64,000 nucleotides of DNA, from the NCBI GenBank assembly GCA_964598335.1, contig CAZRBL010000011.1, positions 1,634-65,633 on the forward strand, written 5' to 3'. This document shows positions 22,190 to 56,978 of the stretch, piece by piece; position 1 is the first letter of the stretch, and every line of letters begins with the position of its first letter. Source of the DNA: an uncultured Rhodospirillales bacterium. Lineage in GTDB: Bacteria; Pseudomonadota; Alphaproteobacteria; CAZRBL01. A model generated the notes under the pieces. It made no database searches and had not been told where the DNA came from. It saw only the letters and a program-made list of their open reading frames with translations. The translations under genes and the position numbers were made by a program.

Positions 22190-22320
22190 TTAGCGCGTTT
22201 TCGTTTGTTTTTGATCCGGTCCGCCCCTGCACCCCCGCCCCGCCTCCCCAGACAGGATACTTGCAGGGGAGGCGGGGCGGGGGTGCCGGGGTGGACCGGA
22301 ATGATCGGAAAATGCTCTAG
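22190..22320. mobile_element. 131-bp MITE/REP-like hairpin element, copy 1
   Basis: Ends TTAGCGCGTTTTC...GAAAATGCTCTAG; about 35-bp internal inverted arms; near-identical to 56848-56978. Confidence 0.8.
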
Positions 22321-22406
22321 CTCAAGGTGAATGCGTGCGCGTAAAGCGCTGCAAACATCACGGCAAAGGCGATGCCTGAGGCAATCGCCAGACGTTGAAA
22401 TGTCAT
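22317..22406 (-). CDS. 29-aa single-TM small ORF (MTFQRLAIASGIAFAVMFAALYAHAFTLS)
   Basis: Translated by hand; GGGAG RBS upstream; TAG stop lies within the CTAG end of the repeat element. Confidence 0.5.
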   Translation of the reverse strand: MTFQRLAIASGIAFAVMFAALYAHAFTLS

Positions 22407-22477
22407 ATGGCGGGCTCCCTACGACCTAGCTCCTAACTTGACTCGCAGCTTATCAGTTGCGGCGTTTGGCGTCCAGA

Positions 22478-23887
22478 TTAGAGCAGGAAAACGGTGGCGA
22501 GGCCGAGAAAGGCGAGAAATCCGACGACATCGGTGACCGTGGTCAGGAAAACACTGCTCGCAATTGCCGGATCGACCTTCATGCGGTCGAGTGCGATCGG
22601 AATGATGGCGCCGAAAAAGCCGGCAACCAGCATATTGACGATCATGGCCGCAGCGATGATGGCGCCGAGCTGAGTCGAGCCGAACCAGCCGAAGGCTATG
22701 GCGCCGATCAGGATCGCAAACAGCACACCGTTGAAAAAGCCGACAGCGGTTTCCTTGCCGATCACGCGCCAGGCATTGGCTGCTGTCAGCTCCTTGGTGC
22801 TTAGCGCGCGGACGGCAACCGTGAGCGTCTGCGTCCCGGCATTGCCGCCCATGGAGGCAACGATCGGCATCAGGATTGCCAGCGCGACGAGTTGGTCGAG
22901 CGTGGCATCGAACATGCCGATGACCACCGAGGCGAGGACCGCCGTCAACAGATTGACGAACAGCCAGGAGAAACGTGACCGCGTGGTCTGCAGCACGGCT
23001 TTGTAGAGGTCACCGCTTTCGGCGCCGGCGAGGGCAAGGATGTCCTCCTCGGCCTCGAGATTGATGACCTCGACGATGTCGTCGATGGTGATGACGCCCA
23101 GCAATCGTCCGTCATCATTCACGACCGGGGCGGCGACGAGCCCGTATTGGCGGAATTTGAAGGCGACCTCTTCCTGATCGGTCTCGGGGCTGATCGCCTC
23201 GAACTCGGTTTCGCAGATATCGATCAGTCGCTGGCTGCGCCTTGACCGCAGCAACCGTGACAGGTCGACGGTGCCGGTGACCCGGTGCATCGGATCGACA
23301 ATGAACACGTCGTAAAACGTGTCCGGCAGGCCGTCAGGATCGGCCCGCATGTAATCGATGGTCTTGCCGACGGTCCAGAATTGCGGCAGCGCGATGACCT
23401 CGCGCTGAATCAGGCGCCCGGCGCTGTCCTCGGGGAAAGTCAGGCCCTGTTCGACCAGGGCGCGGACACGCCCGGACAGCAGCGTCATGATCGTGCGCTG
23501 CAAATCCTCGTCGAGGTCCTCGATCAGCTCCAGCGCATCATCGCTTTGCAGTTCATCGACGATGGCCGCGACATCGCGCGGTTCGAGCTGGCGGATCAGC
23601 TCTTCTTGTACCGAGGAATGGAGATAGGAAAAGACCTCGGCATCCAGCCGGTTCTTGAAGGTCTCGCACAGCTTGAGCCGGTGCTGCGGATCGGTCTTTT
23701 CCAGCAGATCGGCGATATCGGCGGCGTGCAACTCATCGATCAGCGGTTCGAGATGGCTGACATCGTTTTCGTCGAGCCAGCGTTCGACCTGCCGCAGATG
23801 TTCGGGCGAGATATCGTAACCGGTTGGGGCCTCGCCCTCTTCCGGCCCCGGTTCGATCTCTTTCTCTTTCGCGTTTTCCAGCGCCAC
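22478..23887 (-). CDS. mgtE: Magnesium transporter MgtE
   Basis: Acidic N-domain, CBS pair, IVASMGGNAGTQT, TTVTDVVGF. Confidence 0.96.
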   Translation of the reverse strand: MALENAKEKEIEPGPEEGEAPTGYDISPEHLRQVERWLDENDVSHLEPLIDELHAADIADLLEKTDPQHRLKLCETFKNRLDAEVFSYLHSSVQEELIRQLEPRDVAAIVDELQSDDALELIEDLDEDLQRTIMTLLSGRVRALVEQGLTFPEDSAGRLIQREVIALPQFWTVGKTIDYMRADPDGLPDTFYDVFIVDPMHRVTGTVDLSRLLRSRRSQRLIDICETEFEAISPETDQEEVAFKFRQYGLVAAPVVNDDGRLLGVITIDDIVEVINLEAEEDILALAGAESGDLYKAVLQTTRSRFSWLFVNLLTAVLASVVIGMFDATLDQLVALAILMPIVASMGGNAGTQTLTVAVRALSTKELTAANAWRVIGKETAVGFFNGVLFAILIGAIAFGWFGSTQLGAIIAAAMIVNMLVAGFFGAIIPIALDRMKVDPAIASSVFLTTVTDVVGFLAFLGLATVFLL

Positions 23888-23894
23888 GATCGAC

Positions 23895-26222
23895 CTATTG
23901 CGCGGCTGCTACGGCCTGCCCCGCCTCTGCGGCGGCGTTCCGCATGGCGGCGGCGGCCTGCGCATCGACGGCGGCAATGGCTGAAACATTGACGATGCCG
24001 CGCACCGTCACCGACGGGGTCAGAATGTGCGCCGGTTTGGCGATGCCCAGAAGGAGCGGTCCGATGCTGATACCGTCGCCGAGCACCTTGAGCAGGTTGA
24101 AGGCGATATTCGCCGCCCCAAGCGAGGGCATCATCAGCAGATTTGCTTCACCGCTGAGCATGGAATCAGGCAGGATCTGCTCTCGGATTTCCGGCGAAAT
24201 CGCGGCATCGGCATGCATTTCGCCGTCGATTTCCAGCTCAGGCGCGCGGCGCTGGATTTCCGCCAGGGCTTCCCGCATGCGCCGGGCATCGGCATCGTCA
24301 TGGGTACCGAAATTCGAATGCGAAAGCATTGCCACCTTCGGGACGATACCGAGGCGCCGGATTTGATCGGCGGCCATGAGCGTGTTTTCGGCGATGTCGA
24401 GGGCGTCGGGCTTCGGTGTGACATATGTGTCGGCGACGAAATAGGTGCCCTTGGACAGGATCAGTACCGACAGCGCGGCCGGTTTCCTGATGCCTTCGCG
24501 CAGGCCGAGGACATCGGTGACGGCCTTGAGATGTTTGGCATAGGCGCCGAAAGCGCCGCAGATCAGGGCATCGGCCTCGCCCTTATGCACCATCAGTGCG
24601 CCGATCACCGAGAAATTGCTGCGTAATTCGGTCCGGGCGATCTGGGCAGTGACACCACGTCGTTTCATCAGATCGTGATAGGCGGTCCAGTATTCCCGAT
24701 AGCGCGGATCATTCTCCGGATTGACGAAATCGAAATGCTCATAGGGGCGCAGTCGCAGCCCCAGCTTTTCGATCCGGCGGGCGATGACGTCAGGCCGGCC
24801 GATCAGGATCGGACGACCGAAGCCTTCATCGACCACGACCTGTACCGCGCGCAAAACCTTTTCCTCTTCGCCTTCGGCATAGACCAAGCGTTGCGGATTT
24901 GCCGCCGCCTGGCTCATCACCGGCTTCATCAGAAGGCCCGAGCGGAAGACAAATTGTTCCAGGCGCCGGCGATAGGCGTTGAAATCCTCGATCGGTCGCG
25001 CGGCGATACCGCTGTCCATCGCCGCCTTGGCCACGGCGGGCGCCAGTTTCAGGATCAGCCGCGGATCGAACGGTTTGGGGATCAGATGCTCGCGGCCGAA
25101 CTGCATCGGCGTGTCATCGGCTTGATAGGCGCTGGCGACGATGTCGCTCGACTCGGCCATCGCCAGATCGGCCAGCGCACGGACGCAGGCCAGTTTCATC
25201 GCCTCATTGATTTCGCTGGCGCCGACATCGAGGGCGCCGCGAAAGATGAACGGAAAGCACAGAACATTATTGACCTGATTGGGATAATCCGACCGCCCGG
25301 TCGCGATAATCGCATCAGGTCTAACCTCTTTCGCCGCGACCGGGTCGATCTCGGGGTTCGGATTCGCCAGCGCCATGATCAGCGGGTCTTCGGCCATGCC
25401 GGAGACCATCTCGGGGCTCAGCACACCGCCCACCGACAGGCCGAGAAACAGATCGGCCCCCGAGATCGCCTCGCTCAGCTGACGCGCTTCGGTATCGGCT
25501 GCGAATCCGGCCTTGCGCGAGTCCATATATTCGCTGCGGCCCCGATAAACGACGCCGACCCGGTCGGTGACAATTATATTTTCCTTGCGGATGCCGATGC
25601 CGCAGAGCAATTCGAGACATGCCATGGCGGCAGCGCCGGCGCCCGAGGTGACCATCCTGACCTCTTCCGGCCTGCGCCCGGTCAGCCTCAGCCAGTTCGT
25701 GACCGCCGCGCCGACGATGATTGCCGTGCCGTGCTGATCGTCGTGGAAGACCGGAATATTCATGCGCTGATGGCAGGCCGCCTCGACCGCGAAACATTCC
25801 GGCGCCTTGATGTCCTCAAGATTGATGCCGCCGAAACTCGGCTCGAGCGAGGCGATGATCTCGACCAGCTTGTCGGGATCGGTCTCATCGATCTCGATAT
25901 CGATCGCATCGATGCCGGCGAATTTCTTGAACAATACCGCCTTGCCTTCCATCACCGGCTTGGCCGCCAGCGGACCGATGGCGCCGAGGCCGAGCACGGC
26001 TGTGCCGTTCGTGATGACCGCGACCATATTGCCGCGCGCCGTGTATTCGCTGGCAAGCGACGGATCGGCGGCGATTTCCTCACAGGCGGCCGCAACGCCG
26101 GGGGAATAGGCGAGCGATAGATCGCGCTGGGTGGTCAGCGGCTTGGTCGCCCGGATCGCGATCTTCCCCGGTCTCGGGCTCTGGTGATAGGTCAGCGCGG
26201 CTTCGCGCAGCGTGTCGGGCAT
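23895..26222 (-). CDS. maeB: NADP-dependent malic enzyme with PTA-like domain
   Basis: [45 protein letters not shown]-terminal PTA-like domain. Confidence 0.97.
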
Positions 26223-26317
26223 GGACAGGGTTCCGGCTCGGATGATCCCCAAGCGATGTTGGATATCTGCCGGAATGTAAAGGGCTGTAAGCGCGGCGGG
26301 TCAGACTGTGCCTGCGC

Positions 26318-27064
26318 TTACCCCACCCCCATACCGCCGTCGATCGGCACCACCAAACCGGTCAGATAGGCGGCCGCGTCGCTTAGCAGAAAGGCGACGG
26401 TCTCGGCGACATCACTGCCCGTGCCCAGCCGCTTTAGCGGCACCGTCGCCGCCAGCGCCTCGGCCTGATCGCCGAGTTTCGCCATCCAGGCGTCGGTCGC
26501 GATATAGCCGGGCGCGATGACATTGACGCGGATGCCGTGCGGACCATTCTCGGCCGCTGCGGTCTGCGCCAGGATGATGGCGGCGGCCTTGGCCGCGGAA
26601 TAAATGCCGATGGTCGGGATGCCCTTGATGCCGCTGCGGGCGCTGTTGATGACGACAGACCCGCCGCCGCTTTCACGCAACAGCGGGATCTGGCTGCGCA
26701 AGGTATGAAACACCCCGGCGGCATTTACCGCCATGGTGTCGGCAAAGGCGGCCGGATCGGCTTCGTGCAGCGCCCCGAAGCCAAGGATCTTGCCGGCGTT
26801 ATTGAAGGCGCAATCGAGCCGGCCGAAATCGCGTTCGATGAACTGCGCCAGCGCGGCGCATTGCGCATAATCGGTGACATCGGCGGCAAAGCCCTGCGCC
26901 CTGCCGCCCGCGTCGCGGATTTCCGCCGCGAGCTCATCGCAGGCATCCTGCCGCCGCGACGCGACGATGACGGTGCCGCCGCGTGCTGCAAGCAGCCTTG
27001 CGGTGTCACGCCCCATGCCGGTGCTGGCGCCGGTTACGACACAGATTTTGCCGTCAAAGCTCAC
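26318..27064 (-). CDS. Short-chain dehydrogenase/reductase
   Basis: TGASTGMG, NNAG, YSAAK, IRVNVIAPG. Confidence 0.92.
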   Translation of the reverse strand: MSFDGKICVVTGASTGMGRDTARLLAARGGTVIVASRRQDACDELAAEIRDAGGRAQGFAADVTDYAQCAALAQFIERDFGRLDCAFNNAGKILGFGALHEADPAAFADTMAVNAAGVFHTLRSQIPLLRESGGGSVVINSARSGIKGIPTIGIYSAAKAAAIILAQTAAAENGPHGIRVNVIAPGYIATDAWMAKLGDQAEALAATVPLKRLGTGSDVAETVAFLLSDAAAYLTGLVVPIDGGMGVG

Positions 27065-28026
27065 GCCTGGACAAACTCAAAGAGTTCTTCATTGGGGCCG
27101 CAAGCGAGCATCACCGTCTCGGTCTTGCCGTCGCGCTCGATCTCCGTCGGTTTGGTCATGATCGGGTATCCGGCGGCCTCTATGCGCCCGGCCAGGGCAT
27201 CGATGTCCGGCGTGCTGTGCGACAGCAGGCTGAAGCCGAGATGGCCTGGCTTCATGCGGCCCTTCAGACGTTTTCTCTCCATGCCGGCGAATTCGATCGT
27301 CAGGTATTTGCCGCTGGGTTCGCCCTCACCGGCCCAGACCAGCCAATCGATGCCGGTTCCGGCGGTGCCCGTCAGCTTGTTCGCCAAATCGACATTTTCG
27401 GGATCGCTGACCTCGTCGACCAGCAATTGCAGACCCAGCACATCGCCGTAGAACGCCCTGGTTCTGTTGAGGTCTTCAGCGATGATGGAGATCGTGGCGA
27501 TTTCGCTGTAATCGACCCCGTCAAGGCAGCCGGGCCGGAGATGGTCATCGCGATGCTTGTGACCGACCATCAACAGGATCGGGACGCCGTCCGGACCCCA
27601 GAAGACAAACTCCTCACTGATCATGTCGCCGACCTGATGGGTGACCGGTTCGGCGCGGGTCGGCCAGCCTTCGGCGACAAGCGCGTCATAGATCGGACGG
27701 ATCGGGTCATCGACATAGAAATCAATGGCCTTGGGGCCGATATCGGCAGGGCCGTCATGCGTTCCCGGCCCATCGTGGATACGGACCTTCTGCGTTGCGG
27801 CGGGGGTGTACTGCGCCAGCCGCAGCTTACCGGCGGGGTGGCCCTTATTGGACAACTCAACCAGCCGGATGGCTGTTTCCGGCGGCAGGCCCCAGGCGGC
27901 GATCAGCGACGGCGAGGCGGCATAGTCCCGCTCAATGCTCAGCGCCATCTTGCCGTGAAAAAGGGCCAGGGCTGCAGCCATATCGCTGACGCCGACGGTG
28001 CAATACTCAATCGCCGATACAGCCAC
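27061..28026 (-). CDS. Tandem VOC/glyoxalase-family protein
   Basis: Two VOC-like halves (VGVSDMAAALALF; IIAEDLNRTRAFYGDVLGL; GPNEELFEFV); overlaps the SDR start. Confidence 0.7.
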   Translation of the reverse strand: MAVSAIEYCTVGVSDMAAALALFHGKMALSIERDYAASPSLIAAWGLPPETAIRLVELSNKGHPAGKLRLAQYTPAATQKVRIHDGPGTHDGPADIGPKAIDFYVDDPIRPIYDALVAEGWPTRAEPVTHQVGDMISEEFVFWGPDGVPILLMVGHKHRDDHLRPGCLDGVDYSEIATISIIAEDLNRTRAFYGDVLGLQLLVDEVSDPENVDLANKLTGTAGTGIDWLVWAGEGEPSGKYLTIEFAGMERKRLKGRMKPGHLGFSLLSHSTPDIDALAGRIEAAGYPIMTKPTEIERDGKTETVMLACGPNEELFEFVQA

Positions 28027-28083
28027 CGCTTATCTCCTGAAAATGTTGCATCACCAGCGTGGCAAGGAATGCGTCACTGATGC

Positions 28084-28172
28084 TGGTGCGGCCGAGAAGA
28101 CTCGAACTTCCACGGGATTTAACTCCCACAGCGACCTCAACGCTGCGCGTCTACCAATTCCGCCACGGCCGC
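28084..28172 (-). tRNA. tRNA-Leu (anticodon GAG)
   Basis: Minus strand GCGGCCGTGGCGGAATTGGTAGACGCG-CAGCG-TTGAGGT-CGCTG...GTTCGAGTC..CGGCCGCACCA; long variable arm; encoded CCA. Confidence 0.96.
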
Positions 28173-28289
28173 AATCCATGTCGGGGAAGCGATGCAGGTA
28201 GCAAAGCGCCGGGCTGTTATCAAGCAGTGGCACCTGCAGATAGCCGGTCCATATTCTGCTTCGTCACTTGAACGGAGGCACCGCCTGTC

Positions 28290-29483
28290 ATGTCAAAGCT
28301 TCGCACCGGCCTGCTTTTCTGCGCCGCGCTTGCTGTCCCCACGCTCTCGACCCTGGCTGCGGCGAGCGAGACGCTCGTCTCCCGCGGCGGCCGCATCCCG
28401 GTAGTGAGCGGCGTTGAGATCGTTACCCAGGCGACGGGGCTTGAGCGTCCCTGGGCGATTGCCTGGCTGCCCGATGGGCGCGCCGTCATCACCCAGAAGA
28501 AGGGCAGTCTGCGCCTGCTCAATCAGGACGGAACCCTTGATCCGGCTGAAATCGCGTTTCCTGTCGCGGTCACCGGGGGCGGTGAATCCTGGGGGCAGGG
28601 CGGTTTGCTGGATGTCGCGCTGCATCCGGACTACGCGGAAAACGGCTGGCTGTATTTCACCTATTCGACGGGTGATCCATCCGCCAATCGCACGGCGGTC
28701 GGTCGGGCTCGGCTCGAGGATGGTGCGCTGACCGGATTTGAGGAAATCTGGGAAAATCCGGATGACAAGCGCAGCGGCGCCCATTTCGGCTCGCGGCTGC
28801 TGTTTCTGGACGACGGCAGCCTGTTGGTCAGCATCGGTGATGGCGGTAATCCGCCGATTATGTTCGACGGCGACGAGATCCGGAAACAGGCGCAGAATCC
28901 TGCTACCGCATTCGGCAGCGTTATCCGGCTGAACGATGACGGCAGCGTGCCCGAAGACAATCCCTTCGCCGGCGATGAGGAGGTTCTGGCCGAGATGTGG
29001 AGCTTTGGTCACCGAAACATTCAGGGCATGGCGATCGACCCGGAGACCGGGGCGATCTGGGCCAATGAGCATGGCGCTGGCGGCGGCGACGAGTTGAACC
29101 GGCTCGAGGCCGGCAAGAATTATGGCTGGCCCGCCGTCACCTTTGCCCGCAATTATCGCGACGGGTCGCTGATCGCAGATGCCATCGACGGTCCCGAATT
29201 CACGGCGCCGACCGTCGTCTGGCTCGACACCAACGCACCCTCGGGCCTGCTGGTCTATCGCGGCGAGGCCTTTGCCGATTGGGACGGCATGATCCTGTCC
29301 GGCGGTCTGGTGACACAGGATTTGCGCCTGATATCGCTGGCCGAAGACGGCGGTCGCCCGAGCGAGCAGCGGCTGCCGATCGGCCACCGCGTGCGCGATG
29401 TCCGCCTCGGCCCGGACGGTCAGCTTTATGTGCTCACCGATGGTGAGGAGGCGCGGCTGCTCCGCCTGACACCGGCTCCCTAA
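28290..29483 (+). CDS. PQQ-dependent sugar/sorbosone dehydrogenase (beta-propeller)
   Basis: Signal peptide; GLERPWAIAWLPDG, HFGSRL, SFGHRNIQG, EHG..GGDELN, NYGWP, RVRDV. Confidence 0.92.
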   Translation: MSKLRTGLLFCAALAVPTLSTLAAASETLVSRGGRIPVVSGVEIVTQATGLERPWAIAWLPDGRAVITQKKGSLRLLNQDGTLDPAEIAFPVAVTGGGESWGQGGLLDVALHPDYAENGWLYFTYSTGDPSANRTAVGRARLEDGALTGFEEIWENPDDKRSGAHFGSRLLFLDDGSLLVSIGDGGNPPIMFDGDEIRKQAQNPATAFGSVIRLNDDGSVPEDNPFAGDEEVLAEMWSFGHRNIQGMAIDPETGAIWANEHGAGGGDELNRLEAGKNYGWPAVTFARNYRDGSLIADAIDGPEFTAPTVVWLDTNAPSGLLVYRGEAFADWDGMILSGGLVTQDLRLISLAEDGGRPSEQRLPIGHRVRDVRLGPDGQLYVLTDGEEARLLRLTPAP

Positions 29484-30880
29484 TGCGATAACGAGGGAGA
29501 ACGGGCGCGCAGCTTCGCGAGAAGGCTAGCGAGCGCCGGGATCAGCAATAACGGTAAAGTCGCCGGTGCGGGGATTGCCGGGATGACATATTCCAGCGTG
29601 ACAGAGGCTGATGCCCCGGCGCGGTCGGTGACGGTGATGTCGATCAGATAGCTCTGATTGCCGCGGCCGCCGAAGATCGCGAGAATCGTCTCGTCGTCCA
29701 GCGTGCCGCCGACATTCTGGAAAACATCGGTCGAAGCCGGGTCGGTGACTCCCTCGAGAAGGGTGTGCACAACCTCCCCGTCATCATAGGTCACCGCCCA
29801 GCTCAGCTGCTCGAATCCCTCGAGCTCGGCATTGGCCAGCATGTCATATTCGGTGAAGGTGGCGCCGATTGAGCGCGTGCGCGGTGGTTGCAGAGGCGGC
29901 GCGAAGAGAGGCGGGAATGGCGCCGAGTTCTGATAGAAGGCGGTCGTCCGTGCCTGTGCGGTGTCGGCGCTGCTCAGCCCCTCGGCATCCGTTGCGGTCA
30001 GCCGCCACTCGACCTCGGCATCGGTATCGCTTGCATCAAGCCGCGGTCGCGTGATGCCGGAGGAGGCGAGGGTGATCAGACCGTCCGGACCCGGCTGCGC
30101 GGTGAAATCGATCGGCGGGTAGCCGGGCGATTGCAGCGCGGCGCCGTCGCTGACCCGCGTCCAGCTATAGCCGGTTATGTCGCCATTGGGGTCGCTCGCA
30201 CTGCCGTCTACTGAAGCGGTGAGGTTGAAGGCATCGAATGGCTGATTGATGCTGGCGGTCGAAACAGTGGGCGGCGTTTGAGAAATGACGCCGGTCAGCG
30301 TCAGGCTCACACTGTTCAGGCGCGCATCGTCCGAATAAGACATCCGCATATCCCCGATGCCGGTCGTGCCATAGGACAGATCATTAAAGCTGCCGAAGAA
30401 TTCAGCCAGAATTTCAGCGCTGGTGAAACCGGCATCGCCGCTGCCGAGGATTGATTCATTGTTCCAATCCGCCGCCTGCCGGACTTGACCGGTGCGCAGT
30501 TGGGGAGCGCTTGAATTCACATCGCTATGCGTGATCCTGACGGCATCGCCGGTCAGATAGTTCTGGCTGCCTGCGAATCTGTCCATCGAGAAACTGGCGC
30601 CGGTAATGACGTCCACGGCAAGAAATTGCGCATAATTCGGATCATTCTTGAAATCGAAGATCCACCGCGTGCAGTCATTGACGCCGTCTACCGAGCCGCC
30701 CTGGCTCCCTCCGCAAATGTTTGAGCCGGATTCGTTCAGACGGTCTCGCTGCGCGATGCCCGTATTCGTGACGCGCTGGGTTAGGCTTGCCGTCACCGAG
30801 ACTGTCGTCGCCTGCGCTGCAATGGTCGCACCGACCGACATCCAGATTACCGCAAAAAGCGCGATGGCTGCTCGTGCCAT
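29480..30880 (-). CDS. Secreted protein with PKD-like domains and PEP-CTERM/VPLPA-like sorting tail
   Basis: Signal peptide; SASDPNGDITGYSW..LTATDAEG; ends IPAPATLPLLLIPALASLLAKLRARS. Confidence 0.7.
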   Translation of the reverse strand: MARAAIALFAVIWMSVGATIAAQATTVSVTASLTQRVTNTGIAQRDRLNESGSNICGGSQGGSVDGVNDCTRWIFDFKNDPNYAQFLAVDVITGASFSMDRFAGSQNYLTGDAVRITHSDVNSSAPQLRTGQVRQAADWNNESILGSGDAGFTSAEILAEFFGSFNDLSYGTTGIGDMRMSYSDDARLNSVSLTLTGVISQTPPTVSTASINQPFDAFNLTASVDGSASDPNGDITGYSWTRVSDGAALQSPGYPPIDFTAQPGPDGLITLASSGITRPRLDASDTDAEVEWRLTATDAEGLSSADTAQARTTAFYQNSAPFPPLFAPPLQPPRTRSIGATFTEYDMLANAELEGFEQLSWAVTYDDGEVVHTLLEGVTDPASTDVFQNVGGTLDDETILAIFGGRGNQSYLIDITVTDRAGASASVTLEYVIPAIPAPATLPLLLIPALASLLAKLRARSPSLSH

Positions 30881-31021
30881 GGAAACTCCCCGATCCTCAG
30901 GCTTAACGTCCATGTAATAGCTTACGCTTGGGCAATTGTCTCCTGCTTTTAATGCTATTGGTCGGCGTCACTATCGCCGCTATAGGCTGCCTCACGCTCG
31001 ATCCCCCCAGAACCGGCCGTT

Positions 31022-32149: not shown

Positions 32150-32191
32150 CCCCGATGCGAAGATGCGAAATCGCCGCACTCTGTGCTATGA

Positions 32192-34696
<2,505 letters not shown>

Positions 34697-34774
34697 GTCG
34701 GCCCCGGGAGAGGCTCAAGCGGCAGAACGACTCCGACCGAAGCGACTCCGACACGAACGAAGCTGAGAGTATCG

Positions 34775-43737: not shown

Positions 43738-43755
43738 GATTTTTTCTCCCTGAGA

Positions 43756-45123: not shown

Positions 45124-45144
45124 GTGTTGCGGATGTAAGGCGCG

Positions 45145-45894: not shown

Positions 45895-46283
45895 TGGCTT
45901 CGGGACTGGGTATTGTCCCGAAGCCATTGCGCGAATTCGGCTTCGGTGAAGTCACCGGCTGCCAGCATCAGCACGGCATGGGTTGCGGTGGCTTCGTCGG
46001 CGATGAGCTGCAGGCCGTTGACCTGAAGAAACAAGGCCGAGACGACAAAGGCAGTGCGTTTATTGCCGTCGACGAAGGGGTGATTGCGGGCAATGCCATA
46101 GGCATAAGAGGCGGCGAGGGCGCAGAGGTCGCCCTCGCCATAGCTGAAGGCGTTGATCGGACGCGCCAGTGCTGATTCAAACAAACCTTCATCGCGCACG
46201 CCGCTACCGCCGCCATGCTGTCGTATTTGATGCTCATGAATCGTGTTGGTGGTGGCGATGGAAATCCACTGCGGCTCGGTCAC
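45891..46283 (-). CDS. Doc/Fic family toxin
   Basis: HPFVDGNKRTA Doc motif; GVRDEGLFESALARP. Confidence 0.92.
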   Translation of the reverse strand: MTEPQWISIATTNTIHEHQIRQHGGGSGVRDEGLFESALARPINAFSYGEGDLCALAASYAYGIARNHPFVDGNKRTAFVVSALFLQVNGLQLIADEATATHAVLMLAAGDFTEAEFAQWLRDNTQSRSQ

Positions 46284-46504
46284 TTCGCCAGCTCACGCAG
46301 AGTGTTCTTGTAGCGCTCCATGATCTCTTCGGCGATTTCCATCTGGCGCGCGAACTCGGCGTCGGTTGGTGACAGATGCAGGCCGTTCTTGGCGCGGGTA
46401 GCGTAAAAGCTGTCGCCCTCGCCGAGCTTCATCTCGTCCAGCAAGTCTTTCGGGATCACAACGCCGAGAGAATTGCCGATTTTGCGGATTTTGAGGGTAG
46501 CCAT
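46280..46504 (-). CDS. AbrB/MazE-type antitoxin
   Basis: KIRKIGNSLGVVIPK swapped-hairpin motif; 4-bp overlap with the doc gene. Confidence 0.9.
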   Translation of the reverse strand: MATLKIRKIGNSLGVVIPKDLLDEMKLGEGDSFYATRAKNGLHLSPTDAEFARQMEIAEEIMERYKNTLRELAK

Positions 46505-46553
46505 AGCGTATTTTCTCCAGTGTTATAACCAGAGTATATACACGCTGCGTCTG

Positions 46554-48701: not shown

Positions 48702-48702
48702 C

Positions 48703-49146
48703 TCATGCCCCGTTTCTCTCGGCCTCATGAGCGGCGGCGCGGCGCGCCATTTCCTCGGCGCTGATCGTCTCCTGATGCGTCGCGATCCACCAGATATTGC
48801 CGGCCGGATCGCGGACACCGCCTGCGCGGTCGCCATAGAACTGGTCCTTGGGTTCCTGAAAGGATGTCGCGCCGCAGTCGAGCGCGCGGGCATAGACGGC
48901 ATCGCAATCGGCGACATAAAGATGAAGGAAGTTGCAGCCGGGGGAAAAGCCGCGTGCCTGAGCAATCATGAAGCAGCTATCGCCGATCCGGCATTCCGCG
49001 TTCCATAGTGACCCGTCACCATGTCTGAGAGGCTCGCGCAGCACCTCCGCGCCGAAAACCGTCTTTACAAAGTCCAGCAGGCGGTCGGCCTCTTCGACTG
49101 CCAGATAAGGCATGATCGTATTGCGGTCGGGCATCTGAAACGACAT
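48703..49146 (-). CDS. VOC/PhnB-like protein
   Basis: IMPYLAV, AECRIGDS, DQFYGDRAGGVRDPAGNIWWIA. Confidence 0.88.
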   Translation of the reverse strand: MSFQMPDRNTIMPYLAVEEADRLLDFVKTVFGAEVLREPLRHGDGSLWNAECRIGDSCFMIAQARGFSPGCNFLHLYVADCDAVYARALDCGATSFQEPKDQFYGDRAGGVRDPAGNIWWIATHQETISAEEMARRAAAHEAERNGA

Positions 49147-49235
49147 CGTTGTCTTCCTTCCGGATGGTGTTTCAAGCGCCGGGGGGTGGCACAGCCGGCT
49201 TGGGCTGGCAAGGCTGAGCCGCTATCTGCACAGCA

Positions 49236-50180
49236 ATGAACGATTTCACCGATATCCGGCGTGACGCCTGGGTGCTGCGGCTGCTGCCGGGTTTCGCTCG
49301 TCCCTATGCGCGGCTGATGCGGCTCGACCGACCGATCGGGGTCTGGCTGCTGTTGCTTCCGGGCTGGTGGAGCATCGCGCTGGCGGCGGCGAATGAGGCA
49401 TCCTCGGGAGCACTGCCCGATGCCTATTTGCTGCTGCTCTTCGGGATCGGCGCGGTGATCATGCGCGGCGCCGGCTGTACGGTGAATGATTTGTGGGACC
49501 GCAACATCGATGCGGCGGTCGAGCGCACGCGCAATCGGCCGATCCCTTCCGGCGAGGTGTCGGTCAAACAGGCAACAATCTTTCTGATCGCTCAGCTGCT
49601 TGCCGGTCTGGCGGTCCTTTTGCAGCTATCGCCGACGGCGATCTGGCTCGGCGTCGCGTCGCTGCTTCTGGTCGGCACCTACCCGCTGATGAAGCGGATC
49701 ACCTGGTGGCCGCAAGCTTTTCTCGGCCTGACCTTCAATTGGGGCGCGCTGATGGGCTGGGCATCGGTGACCGATGACATCGCGCTACCGGCGATCTTGC
49801 TTTATGCGGCGGGCGTGTTCTGGACGCTGGCCTATGACACGATCTACGCCTTTCAGGATATCGAGGACGATGCCCGGATCGGCGTCCGCTCGACGGCGCG
49901 TCTGCTGACCGAAAAAGGCGGCCGGCGGCAGGCGAGAGCCTTTGTTGCGTTCTGCTATGCCGGCTTTGCCGGGCTTTCGCTGGCGGCGCTGGTGACCGGC
50001 GGCGCCTGGCCCGCCGGCGTGGTCGGCTGGCTGGCTGCGACAGCGCTGATTCTTTGGATCGTCGGGCGCTGGCAGCCGGACGATCAGGACAATTGTCTGG
50101 CGATGTTCAAGGCAAACCGCTTTATCGGCTGGGCGCTGATGGTCGGCATCATCATCGGTGCGCTTTGGTCGCAGGGCTGA
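49236..50180 (+). CDS. ubiA: 4-hydroxybenzoate polyprenyltransferase
   Basis: RLDRPIG, MRGAGCTVNDLWDRNID..VERTRNRP, YDTIYAFQDIEDD. Confidence 0.96.
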   Translation: MNDFTDIRRDAWVLRLLPGFARPYARLMRLDRPIGVWLLLLPGWWSIALAAANEASSGALPDAYLLLLFGIGAVIMRGAGCTVNDLWDRNIDAAVERTRNRPIPSGEVSVKQATIFLIAQLLAGLAVLLQLSPTAIWLGVASLLLVGTYPLMKRITWWPQAFLGLTFNWGALMGWASVTDDIALPAILLYAAGVFWTLAYDTIYAFQDIEDDARIGVRSTARLLTEKGGRRQARAFVAFCYAGFAGLSLAALVTGGAWPAGVVGWLAATALILWIVGRWQPDDQDNCLAMFKANRFIGWALMVGIIIGALWSQG

Positions 50181-50256
50181 TTTACGCGGAGCGAGGGCCC
50201 ATCTTGACAGCATCAGGCCATGGCGCGGCGGTCCTGTCGCGCGCGAGGATCCCCGC

Positions 50257-51522
50257 ATGAGCAACTCTTCCGCCTCTGCCGCGACATCAGGCGACGGCAC
50301 TGCCGCCATCGCACCGCCTTTGATCGTGCTGGTGGCGATCACATCGCTGGGCCCGCTGGCGCTCAACATGCTGGTGCCGGCGATGCCGGCGATGCAACGC
50401 GCATTCGGTGTGGATTACGGTGTCGTCCAACTGACGCTGACGCTTTATCTTTTCACCACCGCGGTTGCCCCGCTGATAGCCGGACCGATGTCGGACCGCT
50501 TCGGACGTCGGCCGATTCTCCTTGTCGGCTGTGCCATATACATTTTCGGCAGCATCCTGTGCGGTATTGCACCGGATATCTGGACGCTGATTGCGGGGCG
50601 GATCGGTCAGGCGATCGGCGGCAGCATAGCCTTGTCGATCACGCGTGCCATCGTCGTTGACGTGTATCGCGGCGACAAGGCAGCCAGCGTCATGGGGTAT
50701 GTCATCGCCATCATGGTTGTGGTGCCGATGATCGGCACCCCGGTCGGCGGCGTTATGGTCGAACATGTTCATTGGCGCGCCGCGCTGGCGCTGCTTTTCT
50801 TTTACGGGCTGATTACCGGCGCGTTGGTTCTGTTCGCGTTGAATGAGACCAACAAGAATCCGCGTCCGCTGCCGTCAGCACTATCGCTTCTGGGGGACTA
50901 TAAAACGCTGCTGGTGGATAATTCGGCATTCCGTGTCTACGCGCTGATCAGCGCTTGTGTGCTGAGCATCTTCTTCAGCTTCGTCGCCGGCAGCCCCTAT
51001 GTCGTGGAGAGGCTTTTCGGCATGTCGCCGACCGAATACGGCTTGTTCTTTGTTGTTGCCGCGGTGACGCATGTGTTCGGCAATCTGGCAAGCGGAAGGT
51101 TCTCCGAAAAACTCGGCGGCGATACGATGATCTGGATCGGCTTGATCCTGTCGCTGATAGGTACGTTTTCCATGGTCGCGCTCGATGCCGCCGGCGTGCT
51201 TGGGCCGGTCGGCTTGTTCGGCGCGATGGCGCTTGTCAGCTTTGCCAACGGCCTCTCCAACCCGAACGCGTCGGCGTCGGCAGTCGCCTCTGCCCGCGAA
51301 ATGGCGGGCACGGCATCGGGCCTGTCCAGCACCGTGCAGCTGGGTGTCGCCTCGGTCGCAACGGTGATTGTCGGGCTGACACAGGGCGGGGCGGCGACGG
51401 CAATGCCGACGGTCGCGGTGATGGCGGCGCTTAGCCTGATCGCGCTTGTCGTCCATGCGGTCGGTCGTCCGGCGCGACAGGATTTGCGCGCCCGGCAGGC
51501 AGCGGAAGAGGCCGCCGGCTGA
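50257..51522 (+). CDS. Bcr/CflA-family MFS efflux transporter
   Basis: About 12 TM segments; GPMSDRFGRRP motif A. Confidence 0.9.
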   Translation: MSNSSASAATSGDGTAAIAPPLIVLVAITSLGPLALNMLVPAMPAMQRAFGVDYGVVQLTLTLYLFTTAVAPLIAGPMSDRFGRRPILLVGCAIYIFGSILCGIAPDIWTLIAGRIGQAIGGSIALSITRAIVVDVYRGDKAASVMGYVIAIMVVVPMIGTPVGGVMVEHVHWRAALALLFFYGLITGALVLFALNETNKNPRPLPSALSLLGDYKTLLVDNSAFRVYALISACVLSIFFSFVAGSPYVVERLFGMSPTEYGLFFVVAAVTHVFGNLASGRFSEKLGGDTMIWIGLILSLIGTFSMVALDAAGVLGPVGLFGAMALVSFANGLSNPNASASAVASAREMAGTASGLSSTVQLGVASVATVIVGLTQGGAATAMPTVAVMAALSLIALVVHAVGRPARQDLRARQAAEEAAG

Positions 51523-51624
51523 CGCCGGCGCGCTATACAATAATTCGGGAAATAAAACAGTGTGGTTTTTGGGCAGCCGGACTATATTGCGTCCCGAGTC
51601 GGGTTGAACCATGAGGGACGACGC

Positions 51625-52428
51625 ATGAGCGCTGACCCCGAAGTAACGCGATATCGGACAATTTTCATCTCCGATATCCATCTTGGCACGCGCGGTTGTC
51701 AGGCTGAATTACTGCTTGATTTTCTGCGCTATACCGAGAGTGAATCGCTCTATCTGGTCGGCGATATCGTCGATGGCTGGCGGCTTAAACGCCAATGGTA
51801 CTGGCCGCAGGCGCATAATGACGTGGTGCAGAAACTGCTGCGCAAGGCCCGTAAGGGGACGGACATTATTTACGTGCCGGGCAATCATGACGAAGGATTT
51901 CGGGAATATCTCGGACTCGAATTCGGGCGTATTCGCTTGGAGAATGAATCGATTTTCGAGGCCGCCGACGGTCGAAAATTCCTTGTGCTGCACGGCGACC
52001 AATTCGACATGGTCGTCAACAACGTCAAATGGCTCGCCTTTGTCGGCGATTACGCCTATCGGGCGGCGCTGATCGCCAATACCGCCTTCAACTATGTCCG
52101 CCGCAAGCTCGGCTTCGGCTATTGGTCCCTATCCGCCTATCTTAAGCACAAGGTCAAGAACGCCGTTGCCTATATCGGCACCTATGAAGAGGCGGTCGCC
52201 TCGGAGGCGAGGCGGCGCGGCGTTGACGGCGTGATCTGCGGTCACATCCATCATGCTGAAATGCGCGATTTCGATGAGATCACCTATATCAATGACGGTG
52301 ATTGGGTGGAAAGCTGTACGGCGCTGGTCGAGCATCATGACGGTCGTATGGAAATTCTTCGCTGGGCCGACATCTTTGCAGCGCGCGAAGGACGCAAAAT
52401 CGCTGAATTGCAGCCGGCCGCCGCCTGA
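51625..52428 (+). CDS. PlcP-like metallophosphoesterase (often auto-annotated UDP-2,3-diacylglucosamine hydrolase)
   Basis: ISDIHLG, GDIVDGW, WPQAHNDVVQKLLRKARKG, PGNHDE, HGDQFD, CGHIHH, GDWVESCTAL. Confidence 0.8.
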   Translation: MSADPEVTRYRTIFISDIHLGTRGCQAELLLDFLRYTESESLYLVGDIVDGWRLKRQWYWPQAHNDVVQKLLRKARKGTDIIYVPGNHDEGFREYLGLEFGRIRLENESIFEAADGRKFLVLHGDQFDMVVNNVKWLAFVGDYAYRAALIANTAFNYVRRKLGFGYWSLSAYLKHKVKNAVAYIGTYEEAVASEARRRGVDGVICGHIHHAEMRDFDEITYINDGDWVESCTALVEHHDGRMEILRWADIFAAREGRKIAELQPAAA

Positions 52429-52521
52429 CCCCTGATAATCGCGGCGGGGAGCCGGGGCCGGTAAAGCCGCCTTTAACGCCCTTTCCCGCCGCCGCTTTTT
52501 CCGCTACCCGCTCTCGCCATT

Positions 52522-53613
52522 GTGCGCATTCTTTTCATTTCCGATGCTTGGCTGCCGCAGGTCAACGGCGTTGTCCGCACGCTGCAGACGACCCGCGACG
52601 AGCTGATTGCGATGGGCCACGAGGCCCAGGTGATCGGCCCCGAGCATTTCGTCACCATGCCGTTGCCGACCTATTCCGAAATTCGCCTGGCGCTGCTGCC
52701 GGGCGTCAAGCTCGGCAATATGATCGACGATATCAAGCCCGACGCGATCCATATTGCCACCGAAGGTCCCCTCGGCTGGGCTGCGCGCGAATATTGCCTC
52801 AATCGCGAAATCCAGTTCACCACCAGCTATCACACGCGCTTTCCCGAATATATCCGCAAGCGGGTGCCGATCCCGCTGGCCTGGACCTACCGCATGCTGC
52901 GCATGTTCCATGCGCCGGCCTCGGCCGTGATGGTGGCGACGCCCTCGGTCGAGCGCGCTTTGCGGCGTCGCGGCTTCACTCATCTCGAGCGCTGGGAGCG
53001 CGGTGTCGATACCCGGCAATTTCATCCTCTGCCGCCGGATCAGCGTGACTTCCTCGATCTGCCGCGCCCGATACTCGTCTATGTCGGGCGTTTGGCGGTC
53101 GAAAAAAACGTCAAGGCGTTTCTACAATTGAAGACTCCCGGCACCAAGCTGGTTGTCGGCGACGGCCCGCAGGCCGCCGGGCTGATGGAAAAATTTCCCG
53201 AAGCACATTTCGTCGGCGCCAAGCATGGCGAAGAACTTGCCCGCTATTACGGCGTCGGCGATGTGTTCGTATTTCCTTCCCTGACCGACACTTTCGGTCT
53301 TGTTGTGCTTGAGGCATTGGCCTGCGGGGTGCCGGTGGCGGCCTATCCGGTCACCGGCCCGCTCGACATTCTCGGTGCGGACGGAAGCGGCGTCGGTGTG
53401 CTCGACGAAGATCTGGAGAAGGCCGTTGAAGGGGCGCTGGCGCTTGATCCGTCTGCGTGCCGTGCCTTCGCCGAAACCCGCAGCTGGCGGCGCGCCGCGG
53501 AACAATTCCTCGGGCATCTCGATCCGTTTGAACGCGAAAGGTTGCAACGCAGGGTCGATGAGGAGGAGGAAGCGCTGCTGGCGCAGAGCGTGCGCCAGGA
53601 CGGCCCCGCTTGA
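52522..53613 (+). CDS. GT4 glycosyltransferase (Agt-like glycolipid synthase)
   Basis: DAWLPQVNGVVRTL, HIATEGPLG, SYHTRFPEY, FPSLTDTFGLVVLEALACG. Confidence 0.85.
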   Translation: MRILFISDAWLPQVNGVVRTLQTTRDELIAMGHEAQVIGPEHFVTMPLPTYSEIRLALLPGVKLGNMIDDIKPDAIHIATEGPLGWAAREYCLNREIQFTTSYHTRFPEYIRKRVPIPLAWTYRMLRMFHAPASAVMVATPSVERALRRRGFTHLERWERGVDTRQFHPLPPDQRDFLDLPRPILVYVGRLAVEKNVKAFLQLKTPGTKLVVGDGPQAAGLMEKFPEAHFVGAKHGEELARYYGVGDVFVFPSLTDTFGLVVLEALACGVPVAAYPVTGPLDILGADGSGVGVLDEDLEKAVEGALALDPSACRAFAETRSWRRAAEQFLGHLDPFERERLQRRVDEEEEALLAQSVRQDGPA

Positions 53614-54923
53614 GTTTGGCTGCTGCGCTATACCGGATGACGATGGACGGCGCCGGGCCGCTTCCCGGGCTCTGGTTACGATGGCGCAAGCTGCGCGGTA
53701 AAGAGATGCCCGAGCGCCTCGACGAGCGGCACGGCGTTCCGGGAGCGCCGCGCCCACCGGGGAAACTGGTCTGGGTGCACGCCGCCAGCCTGGGCGAAAT
53801 GCTTTCCGTGCTCGCTTTAATGCGGCGCCTGCTTCAGAGTGATGAGGACGTCACGATATTACTGAGCACGGTCACGGTCAGCAGCGCCCGCGTGATCGCC
53901 GAACGAATCGCCAGGGCGTCGCCTGACGATCCCATCGCCGCGCGGCTGATCCACCAGTTCTTGCCGCTGGACCGCACCGCGGCCGTGACCGGGTTTCTCG
54001 ATCATTGGCGCCCGGATGCCGTCATCTGGGTCGAATCCGAATTCTGGCCGACGCTTTTGCGTCATGTCAGTGCGCGCGGCATCCCGCTGACGCTGCTCAA
54101 TGGCCGCTTGTCGGAGCGATCATTTGGACGCTGGCGGCTGGTCCGTGGCTGGATTTCAAAGCTTCTCGCCGGTTTTGACCCGCTGCTGGCGCAAAGCGAA
54201 ACCGATAGGCGGCGTCTCGTGACACTTGGCGCCGAACAGGCGGACTATCTCGGAAATCTCAAACTGAGCGGCGAACCGCTGGCTGCCGACGCCCATGAAT
54301 CCGATGAATTGCGTTCCCTTCTGGCCGATCGGCCGCGCTGGCTTCTGGCTAGCAGCCATCCGGGCGAAGAGGCGGTAGCATTTCGGGCGCATCGTGCGCT
54401 GCTCAAGGATCGGATGGACTTTCTGACACTGATCGCGCCGCGCCACCCCGAGCGCGCCGATGCCATCGAACAGCTGGCCCTGCGAGAGGGCTTCATGCCG
54501 GGGCGCCGCAGCCGCGGCGAGCGACCGGAGCCGTGGCAGGATATCTATATCGTCGATACGCTGGGCGAGCTCGGACTGTTTTACCGGCATTGTCCGGTGG
54601 CCTGCATCGGCGGTTCTCTGGTTCGGCACGGCGGCCATAATCCCTATGAACCCGTGCAGCTCGGTTGCTGCGTCCTGCATGGGCCGCATATGGACAATTT
54701 CGCCGAGTTGACGGCGGCGCTTGATCACGTCGGCGCCGCGCGGCTGTGCGAAAGCAGCGAGGAACTGGTGACGGCCATCGGCGTATTGGTCGATAATGAA
54801 GACAGCGCGGCGGTCATGCGCAAGGCGGCGGAGGACTTCGTCGCCGAGCAGAGCGGTGTGCTGGACCGCATCACCGCAAGGCTGGCGCCGACACTCGAGC
54901 GCGCCGGTATCAAGCTGAGTTAG
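53610..54923 (+). CDS. waaA: Kdo transferase
   Basis: WVHAASLGE, HQFLPLD, ESEFWP, APRHPER, DTLGEL, GGHNPYEP. Confidence 0.94.
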   Translation: MSLAAALYRMTMDGAGPLPGLWLRWRKLRGKEMPERLDERHGVPGAPRPPGKLVWVHAASLGEMLSVLALMRRLLQSDEDVTILLSTVTVSSARVIAERIARASPDDPIAARLIHQFLPLDRTAAVTGFLDHWRPDAVIWVESEFWPTLLRHVSARGIPLTLLNGRLSERSFGRWRLVRGWISKLLAGFDPLLAQSETDRRRLVTLGAEQADYLGNLKLSGEPLAADAHESDELRSLLADRPRWLLASSHPGEEAVAFRAHRALLKDRMDFLTLIAPRHPERADAIEQLALREGFMPGRRSRGERPEPWQDIYIVDTLGELGLFYRHCPVACIGGSLVRHGGHNPYEPVQLGCCVLHGPHMDNFAELTAALDHVGAARLCESSEELVTAIGVLVDNEDSAAVMRKAAEDFVAEQSGVLDRITARLAPTLERAGIKLS

Positions 54924-54935
54924 AGCACTGCCGCG

Positions 54936-55925
54936 ATGCCGAAACGTCCAGCCTTCTGGTTTGCCGATCATCCGGGCTGGCAGGCCGCGGCGCTGGGCCC
55001 CTTGGCGGGCATCGTTGCCGCGATCGGTCGCAGACGCATGGCGCGGAAACCGGTCTACCGGCCGTTTGCACCGGTGATCGGGGTCGGCAATCTGCTGGTC
55101 GGCGGGCAGGGGAAAACGCCGGTGACGCTGGCCTTGGCCGACAAGCTGACGGGCATAGGCCGGCGGCCGATAATCCTGTCGCGCGGCTATGGCGGTCGCC
55201 TCGCAGGTCCGGTGCGGGTCGATCCCGCCGACCATGACGCGGCGGATGTCGGCGATGAACCGCTTTTGCTGGCGCGTGCGGCGCCCTGCTGGGTGGCGCG
55301 CGATCGTGCTGCGGGTGCGCGGCAGATCGATGCCCGGGCGATGCATGATGCCGAAAGCGTCCTGCTCCTCGACGATGCCCACCAGAACCGCGATCTTGCG
55401 ATCGATCTCAGGCTTTTGGTCATCGACGGTGCCGACGGATTCGGTAACGGTCAGGTGATACCCGCCGGACCGCTACGCGAGCCGCTCGGCCCGGGCATCG
55501 CGCGCGCCGATGCGGTGATCCTGATCGGCCCGGACAGACGCGAATGCCGTCGCTCGATCCCGCAGGGCACGCCGGTTCTGGAGGCGACGCTGCAGACGGT
55601 GCCGCTTTCTCCGATTCGGCCGGGGGGCCGCGTCTTTGGTTTTGCCGGAATAGGGCGGCCGGAGAAGTTTCGTGAGGGCCTCGCCGCTGCCGGGTTGGAG
55701 GTCGCCGGATTTCGCAGCTTTGCGGATCACCACCGCTACAGGCAGTCCGAGATCGAGGCGTTGAGGGCTGCTGCGGCTCGGGAAGAAGCGTTTCTGGTAA
55801 CGACGGAAAAGGACGCTGTGCGCATCCCGGCGGCCGCGGGTACCGGTATCCACGCGCTGGCGGCACGGATTCTCTGGCATGATGAGGGCGCCGTCGACCG
55901 GCTGCTCTCCGACCTGTTGGGCTGA
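54936..55925 (+). CDS. lpxK: Tetraacyldisaccharide 4'-kinase
   Basis: VGNLLVGGQGKTP, LSRGYGG, GDEPLLLA, PAGPLRE, TTEKDAVR. Confidence 0.94.
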   Translation: MPKRPAFWFADHPGWQAAALGPLAGIVAAIGRRRMARKPVYRPFAPVIGVGNLLVGGQGKTPVTLALADKLTGIGRRPIILSRGYGGRLAGPVRVDPADHDAADVGDEPLLLARAAPCWVARDRAAGARQIDARAMHDAESVLLLDDAHQNRDLAIDLRLLVIDGADGFGNGQVIPAGPLREPLGPGIARADAVILIGPDRRECRRSIPQGTPVLEATLQTVPLSPIRPGGRVFGFAGIGRPEKFREGLAAAGLEVAGFRSFADHHRYRQSEIEALRAAAAREEAFLVTTEKDAVRIPAAAGTGIHALAARILWHDEGAVDRLLSDLLG

Positions 55926-55930
55926 GCGCC

Positions 55931-56812
55931 ATGGCACGGGCCCTTCACAAGACCTGGCTGCTGGATCCGCTCGGTGCTGCGGCCGGGCTCTTCGCCTACG
56001 GTGTCTTCCGTCTCTTGCCGGCGCCGCTTGCCTCGGCGCTTGGCGGCGTGATCGGCCGGGCGATGGGACGGGTCCTGCGCGGCCTTGATCGCAGAGCAGA
56101 GAGCAATCTGAGGCACGCCATGCCGGAGCTGAGTGTCGATCAGCGTCGGCATATCCGTCGCGGCATGTGGGATAATCTCGGTCGGACCATCGCCGAATTG
56201 CCCCATCTCGATTGGATCTGTCGCAACCGCCTCGACCTGGTCGGGGCAGAGCATTTTCGGGAGCTGGACGAGGATGGGCGTCCCGGCGCGATCTATTGCG
56301 CCCATCTTGCCAATTGGGAACTGGAACTGCCGGTGCCGGCTCTGGCCGGGCTGGCTACGGTGCAGGTCTATCGCGAACTCAACAATCCGTGGCTCCGGCC
56401 GTTGATGCGGCATATCAGGCAGGGCCGGCTGCAGGAGCTGGTGACCAAGGGTCCGAGCGGAGCCAAAAGGCTGATCGCGACGATGCAGGCCGGCGGGCAT
56501 ATCGGCCTGATGGCGGATCAGAAGATGAATGACGGCATTGCCGTCCCGTTTTTCGGCCAACGGGCGATGACCGCGACGGCGCTGGTTCAGCTCTGTCTGC
56601 GTTACCAGGCGCCCTTGGTCGCAATGCGGATGGAACGACTCGATGGCTGTCGCTTCCGCTGCACCGCCTATCCGCCCTGGCAGGTCACTCATCATCCCGA
56701 CGGCAAGGCGGCATCGATCGAAGCGGCGTTGCTGAAAATCAACCTTGAGCTTGAAGACTGGATCAGGGCGCGCCCCGAGCAATGGCTGTGGATCCATCGT
56801 CGATGGAACTGA
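55931..56812 (+). CDS. Lipid A late acyltransferase (LpxL family)
   Basis: HLANWE (HxxxxE), DQKMNDG..VPFFG, EQWLWIHRRW. Confidence 0.9.
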   Translation: MARALHKTWLLDPLGAAAGLFAYGVFRLLPAPLASALGGVIGRAMGRVLRGLDRRAESNLRHAMPELSVDQRRHIRRGMWDNLGRTIAELPHLDWICRNRLDLVGAEHFRELDEDGRPGAIYCAHLANWELELPVPALAGLATVQVYRELNNPWLRPLMRHIRQGRLQELVTKGPSGAKRLIATMQAGGHIGLMADQKMNDGIAVPFFGQRAMTATALVQLCLRYQAPLVAMRMERLDGCRFRCTAYPPWQVTHHPDGKAASIEAALLKINLELEDWIRARPEQWLWIHRRWN

Positions 56813-56847
56813 GTTGTCAGCGGGCTCCGGCTGCATCGCTATGGCGG

Positions 56848-56978
56848 CTAGAGCATTTTCCGATCATTCCGGTCCAACCCTGCACCCCCGCCCCGCCTCC
56901 CCAGACAGGATACTTGCAGGGTAGGCGGGGCGGGGGTGCAGGGCTGGACCGGATCAAAAACAAACGAAACCGTTCTAA
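56848..56978. mobile_element. 131-bp MITE/REP-like hairpin element, copy 2
   Basis: CTAGAGCATTTTC...GAAACCGTTCTAA; flanks are the reverse complement of copy 1 at 22190-22320. Confidence 0.8.

Follow-up and report, generated by a model that had tools for sequence, protein, structure and literature searches.

An IS630-type miniature inverted-repeat element from an alphaproteobacterium with its hairpin loop in both orientations

Introduction

Miniature transposable elements with inverted repeats (MITEs) related to the IS630 family of insertion sequences (IS), among them the pneumococcal repeat unit (RUP), are non-coding, intergenic sequences of approximately 100-130 bp that insert at TA, as IS630-family elements do, carry IS630-like terminal repeats and form a long stem-loop (PMC2229807). 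An element of 131 bp that resembles them, with an IS630-like right end and TA at both ends, is present as two intact copies in a stretch of 64,000 nucleotides from an uncultured Rhodospirillales bacterium (assembly GCA_964598335.1, contig CAZRBL010000011.1, positions 1,634 to 65,633), which is referred to here as the window. What sets the element apart from RUP and its kin is an internal palindrome, long, near-perfect and GC-rich, whose asymmetric loop is found in either orientation, and the degeneracy of one of its ends; no cognate IS is known from its own genome, of which the analysis covered the 64-kb window.

Two other groups of short bacterial repeats invite comparison. CcrM-associated intergenic repeats (CIR) of Caulobacter and Brucella are also alphaproteobacterial and intergenic, with a length of about 110 bp and TA termini (PMC2229807); compared by description only, the window copies differ in that each folds into one long hairpin, whereas CIR have two arms connected by a linker, and we do not place them among the CIR, since GANTC is also absent from both. 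Repetitive extragenic palindromic (REP) sequences and bacterial interspersed mosaic elements (BIME), which are mobilized by REP-associated tyrosine transposases (RAYT), share with the element a short, intergenic, palindromic form, a frequent location at the 3' ends of genes and a mosaic of modules, whereas the right end of the element matches that of a DDE (IS630) IS, and both ends are flanked by TA and are without the conserved REP 5' tetranucleotide.

Small inversions within hairpins are known from several systems. Template switching between inverted repeats homogenizes the arms and inverts the spacer (PMC8604942), and it inverts the hairpin loops of rRNA and microRNA genes, bacterial examples included (PMC8794818), while chloroplast spacers undergo recurrent small inversions associated with hairpins (PMC2903610). 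What these cases, in chloroplast spacers, rRNA and microRNA hairpins and yeast inverted repeats, have in common with the element is a precise, length-preserving and recurrent reverse-complementation of the spacer; the difference is that here it is seen among copies of a mobile element scattered over a bacterial genome, the arms being 30-35 nt and the loops 16-17 nt long, and that the two states are roughly balanced in one genome. Correia elements, according to work cited in PMC10969869, are likewise MITEs with an interior that is found inverted between their own inverted repeats; there, however, the account is of a whole interior that flips between terminal repeats and carries promoter elements, whereas the present element flips the loop of an internal palindrome only, with no promoter involved. 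In a limited and non-exhaustive search of the literature, we came upon no account of a bacterial MITE whose copies differ in the orientation of their loop. We describe below the inversion in the window, its recurrence in a related family and the mechanisms that could produce it; the element is an IS630-related MITE with an explicable peculiarity, and we see no indication of a new regulatory switch or of a new chemistry of transposition.

Results and Discussion

Loop inversion in the two intact copies

The outer flanks of copy A (22190-22320, + strand) and copy B (56848-56978, - strand) are mutually reverse-complementary, and as reverse complements the two copies are 88% complementary over 132 nt (22190-22321 against 56847-56978, repeat I1), with the mismatches concentrated centrally. 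The central 86 nt (22215-22300 against 56868-56953, repeat D3) match at 94% in direct orientation. Within each copy, two arms of 35 nt that are 94% complementary (repeats I3 in copy A and I2 in copy B) enclose a loop of 16 nt, AGACAGGATACTTGCA, which has two exact occurrences in the window, both on the + strand, where 0.02 would be expected by chance. Since the outer flanks are reverse-complementary and the loop reads the same on the + strand, one of the two copies must have its loop inverted with respect to its flanks. The loop is not itself palindromic: when the copies are aligned consistently with their flanks, 6 of its 16 positions match, and it accounts for 10 of the 16 differences found over 131 positions. 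The inverted segment is bounded exactly by the 35-nt arms, retains its length of 16 nt and is an exact reverse complement. The inversion of the loop relative to the flanks between copies A and B is therefore real; reverse-complementary flanks with a loop unchanged on the + strand had been reported in the initial annotation, and repeats I1 and D3 and the count of loop occurrences bear this out.

Copy A lies in the left-to-right (L-to-R) orientation, with TA at 22191-22192 and 22318-22319 and a body of 125 bp between them. Its L flank (22193-22214) comprises a degenerate terminal inverted repeat, beginning TAGCGCGTTTTCG, and a T-rich stretch, after which come the left arm of the GC-rich palindrome (22215-22249), the loop in what we take as canonical orientation relative to the R flank (22250-22265), the right arm (22266-22300, from inverted-repeat analysis) and the R flank (22301-22317), which extends to the terminal TAG. 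Together with the R flank and the final 4 nt of the right arm, this TAG makes up the terminal repeat CGGAATGATCGGAAAATGCTCTAG (22297-22320). In copy B, which has the opposite chromosomal orientation and TA at 56849-56850 and 56976-56977, the arm adjoining the R' flank occupies 56868-56902 and the arm adjoining the L' flank 56919-56953 (again from inverted-repeat analysis), and the loop between them (56903-56918) reads AGACAGGATACTTGCA on the + strand and so is inverted relative to its own flanks. The palindrome is GC-rich, cruciform-prone and very stable as folded: as single-stranded DNA, either strand of either copy has a folding energy of -49 to -54 kcal/mol and a z of -9 to -11 relative to shuffles (-53.8 kcal/mol and z -9.2 for copy A).

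The element as an IS630-type MITE

An 18-mer from the R end, GATCGGAAAATGCTCTAG, was found in more than 119 stretches of a species-representative genome collection, nearly all of them from Alphaproteobacteria, against fewer than 20 that by our own estimate would be expected by chance. Among the 123 matches listed, the end motif stands immediately after C-terminal transposase codons in 45, and the longer 22-mer of the window, GAATGATCGGAAAATGCTCTAG (22299-22320 in copy A), is present in 14, such that the right end of the element is identical to IS630-family right ends at 22/22 nt. Many further matches to the end motif are short palindromic repeats with the motif at either end. One IS with a matching end (L086; L numbers are our labels for the sequences compared) has two open reading frames (ORFs) that score as IS630 family, with 143 bits to NF033545, 8e-33 to DDE_3 and an N-terminal helix-turn-helix, and its opposite end reads TTAGAGCACTTTC. 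TA is present at either end of both window copies.

By the match of its right end, the element is assigned to the IS630-type MITEs; for its left end, for duplication of the TA and for mobilization by an IS630-family transposase, we infer the same affiliation. The initial annotation had suggested a search for an IS transposase with matching ends, and one with a matching right end is found in IS630-family IS of other genomes; its other candidate, a RAYT or Y1 transposase, is not supported, given a right end that matches an IS630-family (DDE) IS and the TA at both ends, no scan for Y1 or RAYT genes having been made. The element was also considered as a known RNA family and rejected: Rfam gave no match to it at the gathering threshold, the matches below this score being to generic models of microRNA-precursor hairpins. 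Caulobacter loci with the end motif of the element (for example L100, L120 and L152) hold two-hairpin repeats, approximately 105 bp long and bounded by this motif, which agree with CIR as described in the literature (PMC2229807). If these repeats are CIR, then, judging from the shared motif, CIR ends would be IS630-type terminal repeats.

Recurrent inversion in a Geminicoccaceae family

A homologous MITE with the IS630-type end is dispersed in a Geminicoccaceae genome with contigs of 1.5-3.6 Mb, where its arms are about 30 nt long (GGGAGGGGGAGAGGGCTGG) and its loop 17 nt (CAGGATCCCGACCATAT). The copies were oriented by their L and R flanks before the loop was scored; among those that share both flanks, the loop is in one form in five and in its reverse complement in five. 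Two loop variants, CCCGACC and CCCCACC, are each found in both orientations. Outside the loop, that is, over flanks and arms, copies of the same form lie at a mean distance of 0.110 and copies of different form at one of 0.115 (permutation p = 0.16), and for 6 of the 10 copies the nearest neighbour has the opposite loop orientation. The loops of L200 and L198 are in opposite orientation, although the remaining sequence of these two copies is just 0.9% different. Loop orientation is thus independent of sequence relatedness in this family, and the flips have on this comparison occurred repeatedly, a conclusion drawn for the Geminicoccaceae family.

The family is also a mosaic and prone to deletion, since several combinations of flanks and short forms occur. 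L193 (4731-4855) is a symmetric copy with an R flank on either side (R',R), L194 (3984-4113) is a hybrid with flanks (X,R), and L195 (1440-1560) and L197 (3410-3525) have the flank pair (X,Y). At L158 (approximately 2339-2390) and L197, short forms were noted from which the palindrome is largely missing, some of them 52 bp in length.

Further copies and relatives

A third copy, degenerate and expanded, lies on the + strand at approximately 6279-6431, between rpsO and pnp (repeat I9). It has an L-like flank, an inner hairpin (6333-6406) and the loop motif CAGGATACT on the + strand, and its local alignment to copy A, which spans the L flank, the loop motif and a decayed R flank, scores 70, compared with 27 +/- 4.6 (maximum 44) for shuffles. 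Extra segments are present within its arms, and its loop has the same relative orientation as that of copy A. The orientation of copy A is also that of a related element in a Kiloniellales genome (L186), which shares the R end and has AATAGGATACTGCCG as its loop. Because the degenerate copy and the Kiloniellales relative share the loop orientation of copy A, it is probably copy A that retains the original state and copy B that has flipped.

The intergenic region that contains the third copy (6242-6470) is flanked by two genes of the - strand, rpsO, with its end near 6464, and pnp, with its start at 6241. Folded whole as RNA, the region gives a single extended hairpin, approximately 190 nt long, at -132 kcal/mol and z -9.4, and this hairpin is built round the degenerate copy. 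In E. coli, the hairpin of the pnp leader is an RNase III site that serves autoregulation. By analogy, the relic in the rpsO-pnp region may have been co-opted for the leader structure of pnp, or may disrupt it.

Among species representatives, the best match to MgtE, encoded beside copy A, is 56% identical and comes from Kiloniellaceae genomes. The closest relative, which is metagenomic, has an MgtE 82% identical and a conserved gene order, and no element was found there within 21 kb. A 22-mer of loop and stem had no matches in genome contigs, a 21-mer of the arm had 19 single-arm chance matches and no hairpins in metagenome contigs, and a 21-mer of the L flank had two matches in genome contigs, both by chance (Paenibacillus and Tannerellaceae). 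Neither blastn of the element against plasmids nor a protein search with a spurious 47-aa ORF that crosses it gave a match. The gene to the left of copy A, looked up under two possible starts, had no record, and the contig with the gene to the left of copy B ends at the arm. Related GC-rich hairpins with similar arms (containing CCCAACCACCC) and without IS630-type ends occur in alphaproteobacterial genomes at L012 (498-561), L097 (6820-6888) and L195 (638-685), and those at L012 and L195 also hold a similar loop motif, CAGG(A/G)TAC.

Mechanism of inversion and its alternatives

We consider it probable that the loop was inverted passively through its arms, with template switching as the route. 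Such a switch is possible because the two arms are mutually reverse-complementary. The nascent copy of one arm would anneal, on the opposite strand, to the arm complementary to it, the loop would then be copied backwards, and synthesis would switch back, leaving the loop precisely inverted and the flanks unchanged. A return switch within the arm would give a simple flip and a return further out, in the terminal repeats, a symmetric R'/R element, while slippage across the palindrome would generate the short deletion forms. Products expected of switching or recombination between arms are seen in the Geminicoccaceae family, namely the symmetric L193, the hybrid L194 and the short forms L158 and L197. 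The flip would accordingly be classed as a recurrent mutational by-product of the palindrome, subject to no regulation, in a non-autonomous element that presumably depends for its movement on a transposase of the IS630 family, with insertion at TA. A spacer of 16 bp is too short for the synapsis of two duplex arms, and for this reason classical inversion of duplex DNA by a site-specific or homologous recombinase is implausible. What survives of the recombination between arms proposed initially is that the loop is inverted between them and that an event based on the arms is the likely cause.

The main rival is ectopic gene conversion between copies, which we regard as an unlikely explanation, though one to be taken seriously. 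Donor and recipient would pair antiparallel through their palindromic arms, a short conversion tract would paste the loop in backwards, and flanks could be swapped between MITE families in the same manner. The Geminicoccaceae hybrids with flanks (X,R), (X,Y) and (R',R) do show exchange within a shared hairpin, and the 94% identity of copies A and B in direct register over the central 86 nt also speaks for conversion. The alignment of copies A and B, however, has no visible tract boundaries, and identical products are obtained by template switching inside a single element. Moreover, 35 nt of homology, the length of the arms, is near the lower limit for RecA-dependent exchange. We infer that template switching, rather than gene conversion, was the source of the flips.

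It is improbable that the loop flipped only once, long ago, and that two subfamilies were then each spread by transposition, with copies A and B drawn from different subfamilies. The window by itself would accommodate this history, having just two intact copies with most of their few differences in the loop. In the Geminicoccaceae genome, however, orientation fails to partition the copies, and both loop variants are found in both orientations; a single ancient flip would still, in any case, need one inversion of the loop between its arms.

More doubtful again is a flip-flop tied to movement or repair, in which a single-stranded or hairpin intermediate would fix the loop orientation at random in each event, as in the terminal hairpins of parvoviruses. 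The ratio of five to five in the Geminicoccaceae genome, together with the symmetric copy L193, would fit such an equilibrium, and a state ratio of about 1:1 would then be the signature of a transposition or repair mechanism and not of slow mutation. Against this, the ends carry no Y1/HUH transposase signature, and template switching covers the same data with no new machinery. IS630/Tc1-mariner transposases are cut-and-paste DDE enzymes for which, to our knowledge, no hairpin-transfer step has been described. The hairpin-intermediate transposition suggested in the initial annotation is compatible with the data, but nothing in them demands it.

The quality of the assembly at the palindrome was assessed with the Logan assembly of run SRR7048223, which contains the same genes and, beyond the hairpin, shows no difference from the window. 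At copy B, its contig L002 leads out of the L flank, across the arm and into TGCAAGTATCCTGTC, the flipped state as in the window. Inside the GC-rich hairpin, L002 departs from the window by two mismatches and three gaps, which may stem from noisy assembly of palindromic, GC-rich sequence or from k-mers contributed by further copies. Three contigs of this run end at or inside arms (L001 at window position 22292, L203 at approximately 56872 and L002 at 56879), as is typical of repeats, and palindromic elements of this sort interrupt short-read assemblies at their arms; at copy A the Logan contigs end within the arm, such that the orientation of copy A rests on one assembly. An assembly artefact, which had been raised at the outset and to which the broken contigs, the discrepancies within the hairpin and the single coverage of copy A would lend some colour, is nevertheless scarcely credible, given that a second assembler reads through copy B and recovers the same flipped state, that the orientation can be resolved thanks to the imperfections of the arms and to reads of more than 86 nt, and that a further genome, in megabase-scale contigs, shows each of the two states many times.

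Several observations weigh against template switching within an IS630-type MITE as the full account of the element. Its L end (TAGCGCGTTTTCG or TAGAACGGTTTCG) is a degenerate match to an IS630-type end, at 10-11 of the first 14 positions by manual alignment, and no IS630 transposase is encoded within the 64-kb window. No empty site could be aligned in the closest relative, where intergenic DNA is too diverged, and mobility and TA duplication are for this reason putative. The exact family consists of two intact copies, both in the window, with none elsewhere in the public collections searched. The arms of the window copies show five mismatches in either alignment, which do not reveal the switch points, and no data here separate template switching from short-patch gene conversion. 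In favour of an inversion through long arms, MITE families with arms of 8-9 bp in the same data set have a single loop orientation (7 against 0 in the Caulobacter type), although this control is small and drawn from different genomes.

A bacterial MITE family can thus record recurrent inversions of a hairpin loop, its dispersed copies being natural replicates of one palindrome, and could be used for measuring how frequently the spacer of an inverted repeat flips in bacterial chromosomes and how this depends on arm length. Apparent divergence of the loop between copies may reflect one event and not many substitutions.

Regulatory potential

Nothing points to a regulated switch. Promoter-like or terminator-like sites are absent from both strands of both window copies, and no recombinase gene adjoins either copy, the neighbours being mgtE, a hypothetical gene, an acyltransferase gene and a gene of the short-chain dehydrogenase/reductase (SDR) type. 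In the Geminicoccaceae genome, the strand of the loop motif is unrelated to the direction of the neighbouring gene (about five antisense and four sense) and to local GC skew. The invertible micro-switch entertained in the initial annotation is set aside on these grounds, and a site-specific switch of the fim or hin type was rejected in view of the 16-bp spacer, which is without a promoter-like site, and of neighbours that include no recombinase. An intrinsic terminator was considered and dropped, there being no hairpin followed by a T-run on either strand. The loop motif CAGGATAC is on the + strand in 3/3 window copies, and the idea that it is held on one chromosomal strand was also dropped, given that its strand in the Geminicoccaceae genome follows neither GC skew nor gene direction.

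Genomic context

The element is intergenic, and only spurious ORFs cross its copies. Copy A lies between the convergent hypothetical gene (21297-22106, + strand) and mgtE (22478-23887, - strand), and copy B between a lipid A acyltransferase-like gene (55931-56812, + strand) and the SDR gene (56975-57778, - strand), which are also convergent. The SDR gene has as its TAG stop codon the terminal CTA of copy B (56975-56977), and the terminal CTAG of the Geminicoccaceae MITE supplies or overlaps the TAG stops of three genes (L126, approximately 1090-1093; L130, approximately 2160-2163; L131, approximately 3039-3042). These overlaps are consistent with insertion at TA inside stop codons.

Elsewhere in the window, the sole Rfam match at the gathering threshold is a tRNA gene (28087-28172, - strand). 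The gene next to the SDR gene (57875-59338, + strand; L002, 1441-2775) encodes a protein with BLUF and AppA-SCHIC domains, of the blue-light and redox sensor type.

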